Position numbers and translations under genes: made by a program. Positions 29,555 through 55,300 of a stretch of 64,000 nucleotides of DNA are shown piece after piece. The notes beneath the pieces are model-generated. The model was not told the DNA's origin, did not search any database, and saw nothing but the letters and a program-made list of their open reading frames with translations. This DNA is from Chrysomallon squamiferum. Lineage: Eukaryota > Animalia > Mollusca. The first letter of the stretch is position 1; each line of letters starts with the position of its first letter. The DNA lies in the NCBI GenBank assembly GCA_012295275.1, contig CM022677.1, forward strand, positions 23,436,001-23,500,000. Reading direction: 5' to 3'.

Positions 29555-32500
29555 GTAATGTATGATCTTTTTTGTATCATTACTATTCATATTTTTTATC
29601 ACGCACACATAGAGACATACACACAAACACATATAGATATATGTGTACATTTATAAGTTTTGATCTATACATGATACAATTTACCAATGAAATGTAATAT
29701 TTAGAAACTGAAGTGAAATCTTTTCTTTAGCTTAATACTTATTTGTGTATAATAAGTGACTGTTCATTAGCTGAAGGTTTGTGGACTGAATGGGTGTCAG
29801 AATCAGAAACGTGTAGTACTCCATGTGGTAGTGGTATTCTTAGCACTATCTACAGAAGGGGATGCTCTAGTCCTGGGTCAGTAGACTGTCAAGGAAATGA
29901 CACAAAAACAGAAACCTCTGCATGTGTTTACAGATACTGTGCAAGTAATTAAATTTGTTTTTATGGTTGCTTCTTCCTCTTTATTTTTTTTTTTTTTTTT
30001 TTTAAGAAAAAGACAGAGAGAGAGAGAGAGAGAGAGAGAGAGAGAGAGAGAGAGAGAGAGAGAGAGAGAGAGAGAGAGAGAGAGAGAGAGAGAGAGAGAG
30101 AGAGAAAAAAAATGCATGAATATAGGTATATTTGTATGTATATACATATACATAATGTATAAGCCAGTTAGTATGCACTTGGATATTTGTACAATACAAT
30201 ATGTGTGTGTGTATTTTATACTGACACATTAGATGATTGTACATTGCAGTTCCTGGAAGATGGGGTGTGTGGTTTAACTTAAGATACACCTTATGTGATT
30301 CAACTTGTGTCACAGCCCGCTTTAATATGAGACAGTGTAATCCTCCACCTCGCAATGGTGGAAGATATTGCACTGGATATGAACGGTATATTGAGTTTAA
30401 CAATTGCTCAGATGATTATTGTGATCCAGGTAATAATGTTTTTGATAAAGAGATTATTTCTAAAATACTTTTAGACAGATAAATTTGAAATGAACAATAA
30501 CAACAACAACAACACAATAGTATAGCTGCATTAATATAGCAATAATAAAATAAATACAGCTTATGACTTTACTTGAATATTAATATTAATTCTGCCTATT
30601 TATTACTGCCATATTCTATTTTCAACATTTTCAGCTACCCGCATGAGAATGGAATATGGTGAGTTACTTGGTCTTCTTATGTGTACATATCACAATAATA
30701 AATAATGCATTTCTAATGTTTATTCAAATTTAATGAGATAATCTTTTAAAAACAGTTAGCACTGTAAACCTGAGTTAAATATATCTGAAAATTAACATAT
30801 GAGCTACAATTAATTTCCAGGATCATGGTCAAACTGGACAATAACGAATAACAAAACATGTCAAGCTAACTGCAGCAGATTTCTGGTGTATCGTCGTGAA
30901 TGTAGACCCAATATCGATAAATGTCCTGGTTTCTATCGGAAGTTTAGAATAGAAAGCTGCACAGGTGGACTGTGTAATATAGGTATGTTGATACTGTACT
31001 TTTTTTATAGTATCACTGTTGGCATCAGAGAATATTTGTTCTCTGTTGAATATTTGGGAATATTTGATCCCCTGACAACTATTTGTTACCGCCCTTCTAT
31101 GATGATTTTCAGGTGTAGTTTCTGTATTCTGTCTGTGGTAGTTACTGTATACAGTTTGTTTCTATTGAAAATAAACCCCACTGCAAACAGAGATTCACAA
31201 AATTTAAAACTAGGTAGGTGGAGAAGTAATTGGGGTATACATTTGTCTGGATACATCATCTTTACTCTAACCTTGCATGCCCTCTCTTTAGGATCTGAGT
31301 CACTTGTCTGAACCTGAAGTAAATCCATTGATATACACCAATGTTTATGATGAGAACTACTGAAGGATTAACTACTGAAGCAGTCAAGCTTATAATGCTG
31401 TTAAGTATTCTCACCTTCTGAAACAATAGGATAAACAATGCTTGATACAGTTGTAAAGAGTGTATGATAAAAATATATACTAGCAGTGTTAAACTGGTAG
31501 AAAAAGACTTAATCAATACACACAGCACTGTTTCGCAATCTGCATATTTCAAAGCATACCTGTGGAATCTTCAATTTCTTAGAAATTGTGCTATAAATTT
31601 GATAGTTGTGTACCAGTCTACCTGAAGTAACCAGATGGATAACAAAATAAAGACCAAGTAATGATGACAACACACCCACTAAGTGACCATGACAGGTAGG
31701 AAAGAATCCCAAGCCTCATCTGAACAGGTCCTCCAAAGGCGAGGACTCTCCCTGAGAAAAGGAAGATAGGCAGGTCAAGATTCATTTCAGCCTCCAACAG
31801 CACCAAAATGAATACAAATTTGCAAACTCCTTGGACTTTCATCATGTTAAGTGTCTACTTCAATACAGCTGGATATGACCTTTGAGAACCAAAGTGGTAC
31901 ACTACACAAAAGTGAACCACTTCAGTGGTGTCCTATCATTAAGTTCATAAAACACAAAGATTTAGAGGACATGAGATCAAAGTACTTTTAAATCAGAAGG
32001 AAATGCTATGTCTATTGCATAAATTACCTGATAGTCATAATTCCACTGTGTGGTAAACAAAAAATCTCGTTGAAAACTGTCATTATGATTTTTTACTGAA
32101 CAGCATCTGAAAGCCAGTTTTCTGTGCAACTTTAAAGTTCTGTAGTTTGTTATGAGACCATTGATAAATATATATATATATATATATATAGGGTACAATA
32201 TGTATTATCTGTCCTCGCCCGTCTGGAGATTATGGCTTTATTTTTCTAATTCTTATTTCCAGTTATGAAAATATTGAGGACATTTAGTACACTAGTCTGA
32301 AAATACTGAGGAAAATGAATGTTTTAAAAATATTTTGTTATCCATGCAAGTCTATAAATCAAATGGCCAGTCGCCAGATCGCCCAATATTATTTGGGTGA
32401 CCTTTTTTGTGTGTGTATAAGTTATAACACAAATGCCTTTGTCAATAATTCTATTTATTTCACGTAAAAGGTTTTACTCGTAGTTTGATAAATTGGCCGT

Positions 32501-52300: not shown

Positions 52301-55300
52301 TATCGTGACCATTCAGATCATCTCGGCCGAATAGGCGGACAAATCCGAACCTTCCCAAATGCTGTCTGAACTTCAGTCATCTGCTTCGAGGTGTTCTGAT
52401 TTCTGTTATTTGTTTTCCTCTTTGAATTGATTTGTTTGATTGGTAGGTTAATTTGGTGACTGTTGAAAAGACTAATGAAATTAATTTTTACCATTTTGGG
52501 AATGACTGCAGACCATTTGAGTACCTGCCAGAGCATTCAACAAAAAAGAATTTCAATTTCACATATGTTGGTATGTTTTTACAAGTGACTCTTCGAAGCA
52601 TATTTTTAAATCTTACTTCAATAGTTAATGATCAAGTACACATTTCCTTTAACTCAAAAGACGAAATATGAATATTTTTTGTTTGTGCTACCTATAACAA
52701 ATTTGGGCCATAGAATTTATTACGAAATGAATATTTAGTGGCCCGAATTTGTTTTTACAGACACTATACATTTGAGACGAGTTTCAGACCCTGTATAAAA
52801 ATTTCACCTCTGGGGGAATCAGTATTCAGGGGAACATATTTTGGGAAACAAACATCCTTTAACCTGGCTTAAGGCAGGGCTTAATGTCTGCAGCCCATGT
52901 GTCAGGAAAGAAAAATTTAGAAAATAAAATGATGACAATGTGAGCATGTTTGTGTGTGTGTGTGTTGTGTAATTTGTTTATTTGAGGACGAACAAATAAA
53001 ACCTGACAATAACCTTTGTAATTTTGAACATGACATTTTATTAATTGTTTAGTATTCATCATTCTTTATAACTTAATAGTTGTTATATGTTTCAGTAGTT
53101 ACAGATACAGAAGTGACTGTAGTTATAATTTAATTAAGATATTATGATGTTGTTTGAAGATACCAAAAATAAAAAAATGATCATGTAATTAACTGCTGTG
53201 TTACTTTTTATCAAGCTGATGGCGGTTGGAGTTCCTGGACCAGGGATGAAAAAACATGTTCAGTGACATGTGGGCCTAGTACACGTGTTGTTGTAAAAAC
53301 TAGGGAGTGTAATAACCCAACACCCTCAAATGGAAGAGATTGTGAAGGCAGTAGAATAAATTTTGCTACAGAGTCATGTGAGACTGTTGCATGTCCTAGT
53401 AAGAAAGTAAATTTAATAAATTTTCGTTGTGTCTGCACTGAATACTTTTTTTAACAGTACTTATTGTTATGTTTTATTTCAGTAATTATACACATGCATT
53501 CTACTCACTGACTCTATCTCTAGATTGCATATTCACTTAAAAAAGTAATTTTAACTTATGAAAGTCAGCATTTGTGAAGTAAGGATTTCTTAGCATGAGA
53601 AAATGTATGGCTCTACTTAGATTACTGCAGAGATAATGAAAATGATTTTTTTGATTAATTATTATCCAACATTAAATTAAGTTGATGGAGGTTGGAGTTC
53701 TTGGATACAAATTGAGGGTCAATGTTCAGTGACTTGTGGACTTGGTAATAAAAACATGGAAAGGGTCAAGAAATGTAATAACCCAGCACCACAAAATGGA
53801 GGAAAACCTTGTCCACCAACAAGAGGAACCTATGTTGGATGGAATATCCAATGCAGGGAAGGGCCATGTCCAAGTAAGAAATAAACACATTTGTAAACAT
53901 TTGTGATGTTGTTGTCTCTGCTTTGGTGATGAATATAGTGCTGTATCTAAATTACTGTTTTAAATTATCTATATTGATCGGACATAGATACAAAACAAAG
54001 TTTGATATATATATATATCAATGATTTTACAAAAAGTCATAGGGTTAGATTTTGCACCGTTTAACAGTAGTAAATAAATAATTGTTGAAAAAAGGCGCAA
54101 ACTCACTATATGTAAATTTAAAAATACTAAAACAAAAGAGTTTAATTCCATTTTTAAGTTGATGGTGGATGGACATCTTGGGAAGTAGGTCACAGTGTAT
54201 GTAGTGTTACCTGTGGAAATGGTATTCAGCAAACTGTGTATGAAAGACAATGTACAAATCCTGAACCACAACATGGAGGAAATGATTGTCCTGGAGAATC
54301 TACAAAAGCTACTAATGTATCTTCCAGCTGCTGGAAAGGACACTGTCCAGGTAATAAACAAATATTTCTTTAATAAAATCAAGTAATATTTTATTGCAAT
54401 TTATTTTCATTAAACTTATCCTACTTTCTATGGATTATTTAATTAACATTTGAACATTCCATGAAGAATTATGAAATAAAAGTGAACAAAATAAATTGAA
54501 AGGAAAAACATTTATAACGTTTAGTATGCATTTAACTATTTGTGATTTTCCATAGAATCCAAAAATCTACGAGCGTTTGTGTTTATTTGCATATATCATT
54601 AGGAAATAATTAAGAAATAAATAATTACAGTTATTTCTGCAGAACTGTTAAGGTCTCTAACATTAAGTAGAAAAAAGATTTGAACGATATTTGACCATCT
54701 AAATATAAAAATATATGTTAGTTATTTATAACAGCTAGAATGTAAGTTATGGATCACCATTCTGCATAAACCCGTCAGTCATATTTATATACAAAGAAAA
54801 TCAGTGAAATATGGCTGATGTAATATTAAAATTATATTATAGATACATTAAACTCTCAAACAGACCATAAAATAGAGGATTGCTTACCCAGGTAGCATTT
54901 GTTTGATTGGTTGGTTAATTTGGTGCCTATTGGAAAGACTAACGAAATTAATTTTTACCATTTTGTGGAGCCCTTGAGTACCTGTCAGAGTATTCAACAA
55001 AGAAGAATTTCAATTTCACAAACAGTAGTAAAGCGTTCTTAAATAAGAAAAATGTATTTATAAATTATAAATATTGTATAAAAATAAAATAAAAGAGAAT
55101 GTAAAGAAATAAATAGGTTTTTTAAAGTGTATTTATCGTGGAGATCAGACAAATTATTTTAAGCCTTTGGCTGGAATTACAGCCTTTTTCAACTCCTTCA
55201 ACTTCAGTAAGATACATATCGTAGAAGTACTATGCTTGTATTGCCTAGCCAAGATCAGACAAATTCTTTTAACACCTGTGGCTGGAGTTACAGCCTTTTT

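Follow-up and report, generated by a model that had tools for sequence, protein, structure and literature searches.

We analysed a window of 64,000 nucleotides from Chrysomallon squamiferum (contig CM022677.1, positions 23,436,001 to 23,500,000 of the forward strand; coordinates below count from the first letter of the window). It contains B, C and D, tandem paralogues of one gene. Their exons code for a predicted signal peptide, a row of thrombospondin type-1 repeats (TSRs) and a predicted membrane-spanning segment. Each TSR is encoded by one phase-1 exon, and every intron is in phase 1. We read the differences between the recent copies as near-neutral change at exposed, non-scaffold residues after duplication, not as demonstrated diversifying selection, and give this reading a probability of roughly 55%.

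Two parts of the gene are compared here. The head consists of the signal exon, three atypical TSR exons (E1, E2 and E3), a 24-nt microexon and the first canonical repeat (the type-a exon). The tail consists of the six exons c to e'. The exons of gene C were rebuilt from joints in RNA contigs (runs X1, X2 and X4) and from the sequence, and contigs were aligned over 29600-42800. The exons of genes C and D, with the support for each, are:

29500-29554, + strand: gene C putative signal-peptide exon S (MSFVIIIQLLFNGFLTSR, then 1 nt); ATG, GT donor, phase 1 donor
29771-29944, + strand: gene C E1, atypical TSR; GT..AG joint 29944>30250 in X1 and X2
30250-30429, + strand: gene C E2, atypical TSR; RNA joints
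30635-30658, + strand: gene C 24-nt microexon; two GT..AG joints in X1, X2 and X4
30821-30982, + strand: gene C E3, atypical TSR; RNA joints 30657>30820 and 30980>33532
33534-33716, + strand: gene C type-a TSR exon; RNA joint from E3, Pfam TSP_1
33999-34190, + strand: gene C type-b TSR exon; sequence, GT donor lost (AT)
34460-34645, + strand: gene C tail exon c; paralogue in B at 13968-14153
35170-35361, + strand: gene C tail exon d; paralogue in B at 14625-14816
37619-37813, + strand: gene C tail exon e; paralogue in B at 15539-15733
39298-39486, + strand: gene C tail exon d'; paralogue in B at 17685-17873
40400-40588, + strand: gene C tail exon d''; paralogue in B at 18606-18794
41678-41875, + strand: gene C tail exon e'; paralogue in B at 20549-20746
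42736-42753, + strand: gene C 18-nt exon after e'; RNA loose end past 41875, AG before and GT after
43242-43326, + strand: gene C putative membrane-spanning exon; RNA loose-end continuation matches 43242 (C) and 22219 (B)
49295-49349, + strand: gene D signal exon S; alignment to C
49562-49735, + strand: gene D E1; alignment to C
49969-50148, + strand: gene D E2; alignment to C
50351-50374, + strand: gene D microexon; alignment to C
50539-50700, + strand: gene D E3; alignment to C
53216-53398, + strand: gene D type-a exon; alignment to C
53682-53873, + strand: gene D type-b exon, donor intact; sequence
About 54159-54350, + strand: gene D d-type exon; exon scan

Of the 778 coding bases in the head, 18 differ between C and D: 17 of these changes are replacements and 1 is silent. 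This recount equals the figure in the first-pass annotation, which had described a strong excess of amino-acid-changing substitutions between 29771 and 53398; both borders are exact exon borders. By exon, the replacement and silent changes number 4/0 in E1, 5/0 in E2, 2/0 in the microexon, 0/1 in E3 and 6/0 in the type-a exon. The signal exon is identical in C and D (0/0; 91 of 91 bases including flanks), and every Cys and Trp is kept between the head exons. The two tail comparisons of B and C made earlier were also reproduced: 7/2 for exon 14625/35170 and 9/2 for exon 20549/41678. The four other B/C tail exons give 5/2, 2/1, 3/2 and 2/1, and the total over six tail exons is 28:10. A neutral ratio of about 3:1 had been assumed, and the value computed here from the sites is close to it (3.3:1 with kappa 1, 2.7:1 with kappa 3).

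The head contains 180 synonymous (S) and 597 nonsynonymous (N) sites, with a nonsynonymous divergence (dN) of 0.029, a synonymous divergence (dS) of 0.0055 and a ratio of the two (omega) of 5.2. The tail has a dN of 0.032, a dS of 0.038 and an omega of 0.83, which is not significant. With 18 changes in all, finding at most one silent change has a probability of 0.055 (kappa 1) or 0.028 (kappa 3), and of 0.016-0.036 when changes at Cys and Trp and changes that make a stop are disallowed. The N:S ratios of head and tail compare at Fisher P = 0.084, and head and tail pooled (45:11) give P = 0.06-0.33. The 17:1 ratio of the head is real and nominally unusual; the tail and pooled counts are not.

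Introns provided a second yardstick. Gaps, simple repeats and badly aligned stretches were masked before intron divergence (Ki) was calculated. The unfiltered divergence of the tail introns, 0.0745, is inflated by misaligned stretches, and filtered values are used throughout. Filtered Ki is 0.023-0.027 in the head, where all estimates together span 0.023-0.031, and 0.043-0.046 in the tail. In the head, dN/Ki is 1.06-1.25, which is not significant (Fisher P = 0.45-0.78), and dS/Ki is 0.21-0.24 (Fisher P = 0.09-0.18). In the tail the two ratios are 0.68-0.74 and 0.82-0.88, respectively. When local flanking-intron rates are used, the head has 17 replacements versus 23.5 expected and 1 silent change versus 7.1 expected (P = 0.007); the tail has 28 replacements versus 38.8 expected and 10 silent changes versus 11.4 expected. 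An excess of replacements over introns, for which the first-pass annotation had suggested a comparison of exon and intron divergence, was not seen, as head dN is about equal to Ki. What makes the head ratio extreme is the lack of silent changes and not a surplus of replacements. We suggest that silent changes being few by chance would account for most of the 17:1 count, perhaps with a contribution from real positive selection.

The shortage could also have a functional cause. If silent sites in the short head exons were constrained by splicing enhancers or codon choice, dS would be depressed and dN/dS inflated without positive selection. The single silent change versus 7.1 expected and the low dS/Ki of the head point in this direction, as do the presence of a 24-nt microexon and the location of the head exons between long AT-rich introns. 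However, tail exons of the same kind and size have a dS/Ki of 0.82-0.88, and the deficit is no longer significant when the filtered rate over all introns is applied (Fisher P = 0.09-0.18). Constraint on silent sites is very improbable as the explanation.

One tail exon departs from its flanks. In exon e', 11 of 198 nt differ between B and C, with 9 replacements versus 3.0 expected from the filtered flanks (2.0% divergence). We did not rely on this excess because part of the upstream intron is either very diverged or misaligned (0.149 unfiltered).

The changes avoid the core of the repeats. None of the 56 changes falls at a Cys or Trp codon or makes a stop, while about 8 are expected (P about 1e-4). 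No indels are found in 1927 exon bases, and 12.3 are expected from the density in introns. The head introns carry 21 events and the 778 exon bases of the head none (P = 0.0086); the tail introns carry 41 and its 1149 exon bases none (P = 0.00054). AG and GT are retained at all splice sites of the 12 compared exon pairs (only the donor for the signal exon), including every site in the gene D head at 49295-53398. The exception to this retention is exon b of gene C, which has lost its donor. The lack of Cys, Trp or stop changes among the 56, together with the lack of exon indels, excludes pseudogene-like decay. In seven canonical repeat pairs, the 32 amino-acid differences are spread over 28 columns, and the 16 invariant columns have none. 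No recurring hot-spot columns were found in these pairs: four columns have two differences and no column has three, a recurrence no higher than expected from random placement. We rejected a model with few hypervariable positions in the canonical repeats on this ground. On an AlphaFold2 model, the six type-a differences are located at residues 21 and 24 (strand 20-32), 35 (a low-confidence loop), and 47, 50 and 51 (strand 45-55).

Several results weigh against near-neutral change, and all of them concern the head. Most come from codon models, which were run with custom Python code (GY94 for the pairwise models) that is uncalibrated by simulation. Pairwise maximum likelihood gave a head omega of 4.8-5.5, with a likelihood ratio test (LRT) P of 0.036-0.055. 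Site models, in which B served as outgroup for just E1 and exon a, gave an LRT of 15.5 for both M1a/M2a and M7/M8 (P = 0.0004), placing 24% of sites at an omega of 6.5. This signal holds under other codon-frequency models and without codon 127, and P ranges from 0.0004 to 0.002. A branch-site test, whose null allows relaxation, gave an LRT of 5.75 for the head (P = 0.017). In addition, third codon positions hold only 2 of the 18 head differences (P = 0.033). Finally, if exons mutate more slowly than AT-rich introns, dS is the right yardstick and an omega of about 5 stands.

These results raise the possibility of positive selection on the N-terminal head (E1, E2, the microexon and the type-a exon) as the ligand- or microbe-facing part of a recognition receptor. 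The 17:1 count, omega estimates of 4.5-5.5, and the site-model and branch-site P values are all consistent with it, and the scaffold is untouched. E1 carries three C-lineage replacements within 53 nt, polarised by B. TSR proteins are also candidate pattern-recognition receptors, with expansions in giant clams, according to the accessible parts of two papers (PMC11700175; bioRxiv 10.1101/2024.02.04.577604). Against positive selection, the replacement divergence of the head is not above intron divergence. The branch-site result depends on one codon of E2, codon 127, which differs by two adjacent base changes (AAC/AGA); without it the LRT is 2.86 (P = 0.09). This test is known to give false positives where multi-nucleotide changes occur. 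For the C-D pair alone, M1a/M2a gave P = 0.051. Site models take constraint to be constant over time, so that a relaxation following duplication can produce a similar signal, and the alignment of the type-a loop between B and C/D is ambiguous. No signal is present in the tail or in the pooled data: pairwise omega is 0.75-0.85 for the tail and 1.1-1.25 pooled, neither significant, site models on the tail are not significant, and the branch-site LRT is 0.55 for the tail (P = 0.46) and 3.2 for all data (P = 0.074). No column recurs, and the head was chosen post hoc as the most striking part. We regard positive selection on the head as a minority possibility, to be held tentatively.

Near-neutral change after duplication is supported by a branch model of the head plus tail exons c, d and e, in which older paralogous exons served as the background. 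Omega is 1.06 for the recent branches versus 0.39 for the older ones (difference P = 0.0056), and the recent value does not differ from 1 (P = 0.85). For the head alone omega is 4.5, with P = 0.069 against 1. These values suggest that constraint on surface residues would have dropped after duplication, from an omega of 0.39 to about 1.06, and that the disulfide/Trp core would have stayed under purifying selection. The first-pass annotation had concluded, with the caveat of small counts, that diversifying selection acts on surface residues and had proposed an M7/M8-type check. In our implementation this check was positive for the head (P = 0.0004), gave P = 0.051 for the C-D pair and was negative for the tail. 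The avoidance of the core was borne out, and a dN/dS significantly above 1 was not robust. The conclusion of diversifying selection is weakly supported.

A more elaborate version of the selection hypothesis was also considered. The head, with its three atypical TSRs, microexon and first canonical repeat, would be the variable recognition module of lineage-specific membrane TSR receptors, with new specificities made by unequal recombination and then pushed apart by positive selection on exposed residues. Exon-level exchange between tandem copies would be possible because all exons are in phase 1. If true, this would be an invertebrate receptor family that diversifies by exon-level mosaicism plus selection. 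We find this version rather doubtful.

The history of the copies was examined with self-BLAST. The duplicated segments and the remains of gene B are:

13778-34255 versus 34242-53937, + strand: recent tandem duplication; self-BLAST, 90-95% identity
About 9421-9475, + strand: gene B signal exon, intact; BLAST of C exons, translation
10260-10433, + strand: gene B E1, intact; BLAST of C exons, alignment
10695-10761, + strand: gene B E2 remnant (first 67 nt); BLAST of C exons, alignment
12080-13775, + strand: gene B 781-bp [a+b] unit, repeated 2.2 times; repeats and open reading frames (ORFs), 96% identity

An older copy of the first 3.5 kb of the duplication unit is located at 10204-13775, with 80-90% identity in the self-BLAST. 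BLAST of the C exons found no microexon and no E3 in gene B. In its E2 remnant the first Trp of the motif is replaced; the remnant may form an in-frame mini-exon of 69 nt. In the 781-bp repeat, b1 is frameshifted, and a3 is truncated exactly at the start of the recent duplication unit (13778).

The homology map from self-BLAST suggests that gene C is a mosaic, with a D-like head and a B-like tail. It may have arisen by unequal recombination or by a tandem duplication that joined the two. Such a join would not break the reading frame because all exons are in phase 1. The mosaic is more complex than a single clean duplication because exon b of C differs by 16% from its counterparts in B and D, and those two differ from each other by only 5%. 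Exon b of C has N/S differences of 23.2/6.8, and it retains six Cys and both WxxW Trp. Its donor reads CATAATAAG, versus CCAAGTAAG in D. Exon b is probably skipped and of mosaic origin; from its sequence, it seems to have come from another paralogue and not to have decayed where it lies. The RNA contigs show neither an a>c joint nor an exon b joint in gene C, uncovered stretches not being counted.

Although head and tail lie in what appears to be one 20-kb duplication unit, filtered introns diverge by 2.3-2.7% between the heads of C and D and by 4.3-4.6% between the tails of B and C. This two-fold difference indicates either more than one event, or haplotypes that had already diverged, or a head that was partly homogenised. 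Large-scale recent homogenisation as the main cause was rejected, as no long gene-conversion tracts were found. The longest identical runs are 262 bp between C and D (P = 0.002) and 195 bp (P = 0.006) and 186 bp (P = 0.01) between B and C.

The head/tail gap also bears on the possibility that many of the differences are allelic polymorphism, produced by unequal crossing-over between haplotypes that had already diverged or by an assembly in which two haplotypes were put one after the other. In that case the N:S ratio would be a property of polymorphism at a variable locus. For the DNA-type run X3, the shared fraction of 31-letter words is only 0.51, which corresponds to about 2.2% divergence between individuals and resembles the intron divergence between C and D. 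Of 40 variant letters listed in other runs, 29 equal a paralogue state, and some contigs are B/C mosaics. At E2, the contigs of X1 are all of the C type and those of X4 all of the D type. Mosaics and single types carry little weight, however, because Logan contigs lose minor variants and may join close paralogues into chimeras. The window contains no N letters, and the three units are structurally unlike: B is without the microexon and E3, and kilobase indels are found in introns. Both B-type and C-type exon c occur in X1. We consider polymorphism unlikely to account for many of the differences, though some of them may be inherited or still segregating. The X3 contigs on exons c, d and e' (34582-34616, 35237-35239 and 41725-41827) mix B and C states, which could reflect exchange between copies or alleles, or chimeric short-word contigs.

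Copies of both kinds are expressed. RNA contig record 22 of X4 departs from C by 5 letters in E2, 2 in the microexon and 1 in E3, the counts by which D differs there, and its two listed variant letters at 30285 and 30298 are in the D state. The D head is therefore expressed and spliced like that of C. In X1, exon c of the B type and of the C type are both present (43.2 of 63.7 depth). Thus C-type and D-type heads and B-type and C-type tails are shown to be expressed.

The repeat exons of gene C, including E1-E3, are TSRs, and E1-E3 are atypical. Pfam TSP_1 (PF00090) is matched at E<=0.01 by 5 of the 11 gene C exon ORFs. Exons a, c and d'' score 26.2, 29.4 and 21.6 bits, respectively, and reach the gathering score (21.6 bits); two others score 16.6-18.4. 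The other 6 of 11, which include E1-E3, have no TSP_1 match at E<=0.01. In hhalign comparisons with a TSR profile from the window, E1, E2 and E3 are matched with 97%, 93% and 86% probability, and their Cys are in register. The profile, built from 18 repeats of the window, matches thrombospondin-1 TSRs (3r6b and 1lsl) with E about 1e-20. In the alignment, G2, W4, S6, W7, C14, C18, G19, C31, P34, P36, G39, C42, C54 and C59 are invariant in 18 of 18 repeats. The TSR core, as described for 1lsl, is a stack of Trp, Arg and disulfides. The AlphaFold2 model of the type-a exon has a predicted local confidence (pLDDT) of 83 and contains three strands (8-14, 20-32 and 45-55). The top Foldseek matches to it, 7yyk, 1lsl, 3r6b, BAI1 TSR3 and properdin, are all TSR structures; the probability is 1.00, yet E is about 5e-3 (the domain is short), with TM scores of 0.4-0.5.

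The ends of gene C suggest a membrane protein. The first exon encodes 18 hydrophobic residues and is spliced to E1; loose ends of RNA contigs upstream of E1 match 29532-29552 within it. In the tail, GT..AG joints c>d>e>d'>d''>e' are present in runs X1 and X2. The exon at 43242 is reached from e' via the 18-nt exon and encodes a hydrophobic stretch of 22 residues. At its 3' end, either splicing occurs at AG|GTGA or the protein ends in ..YYR followed by a stop. The two hydrophobic stretches, read by translation, predict a single-pass membrane TSR string. A Pfam search of 11 ORFs downstream of the membrane exon gave no match to a cytoplasmic domain, and the cytoplasmic part may be only a few residues. 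A THAP-like ORF guessed by eye at 46135-46311 was rejected, as it has no Pfam match.

The window is AT-rich, with about 30% GC. All of its open frames with the WxxW...C motif are located on the + strand. A single tandem TSR gene family appears to fill it. More TSR exons, of other types, are found on the + strand at 56376-63744 and 1069-2845. On the right, two exon triplets (about 56376, 57025 and 57802; 61190, 62665 and 63541) resemble a repeated unit of about 5 kb; the three exons of the 56-58 kb cluster have no Pfam match at E<=0.01. The left end holds two further repeats and a look-alike of the 18-nt exon (2794-2845). The introns carry long (GA)n/(TC)n, (CA)n and poly-A/T microsatellites (29968-30121, 44900-45000 and others), whose lengths vary between copies. 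After E1, for example, C has a long (GA)n tract and D almost none.

The locus is a clear case of an extracellular gene family that is arranged in tandem and modular at the level of exons. It includes a young mosaic copy, C, which is expressed; the disulfide/Trp scaffold is strictly conserved, and residues at the surface change at close to the neutral rate. As the locus also shows, a shortage of silent changes can produce a striking N:S count where replacements are not in excess. By analogy with proposals for other invertebrate TSR proteins, the product would act as a cell-surface adhesion or recognition molecule. If the head is truly under diversifying selection, the locus would point to a family of recognition receptors built on TSRs. 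Invertebrate TSR proteins have been proposed to act in microbe or symbiont recognition, so binding tests could then make natural use of the C and D heads as reagents.

Thrombospondin-1 TSRs (1lsl, 3r6b and 7yyk) and the repeats of the window have in common WxxW, CSxTCG, six cysteines and a three-stranded fold. Unlike them, E1-E3 are without parts of the motif, and no CG follows the second Cys in E2 and E3. The gene is predicted to encode a single-pass membrane TSR string and is not a thrombospondin. The best database matches to exon c are multi-TSR proteins of molluscs, annelids and corals, with 50-62% identity over one repeat. For E2, no candidate for a close relative was found among longer proteins, and a search of 1.84 billion representatives returned only generic TSR arrays with 28-50% identity. 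Invertebrate SCO-spondin-like, coadhesin-like and papilin-like proteins (Mercenaria, Crassostrea, Pomacea and Ostrea) are strings of TSRs like gene C. When compared via Pfam lists, however, the multi-TSR database proteins do not show the head of gene C, with its three atypical repeats and microexon, or its membrane exon.

Giant clams have expanded TSR families, whose proteins are treated as candidate recognition receptors; in their accessible parts, the papers give family counts and expression (PMC11700175; bioRxiv 10.1101/2024.02.04.577604). A limited literature search found no report of dN/dS on TSR exons, which does not prove its absence. As far as these sources extend, the TSR repertoires of symbiotic cnidarians and giant clams resemble this locus in being a lineage-specific multi-copy family with signal peptides. 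By analogy, fast evolution after tandem duplication fits this picture of expanded repertoires. The tandem immune receptors of bivalves, C1q-domain proteins (PMC6835236) and Toll-like receptors (PMC10279657), belong to domain families other than TSR. In the accessible parts of those papers, they show the same sequence of events as found here, with tandem duplication followed by fast divergence of the extracellular domain.

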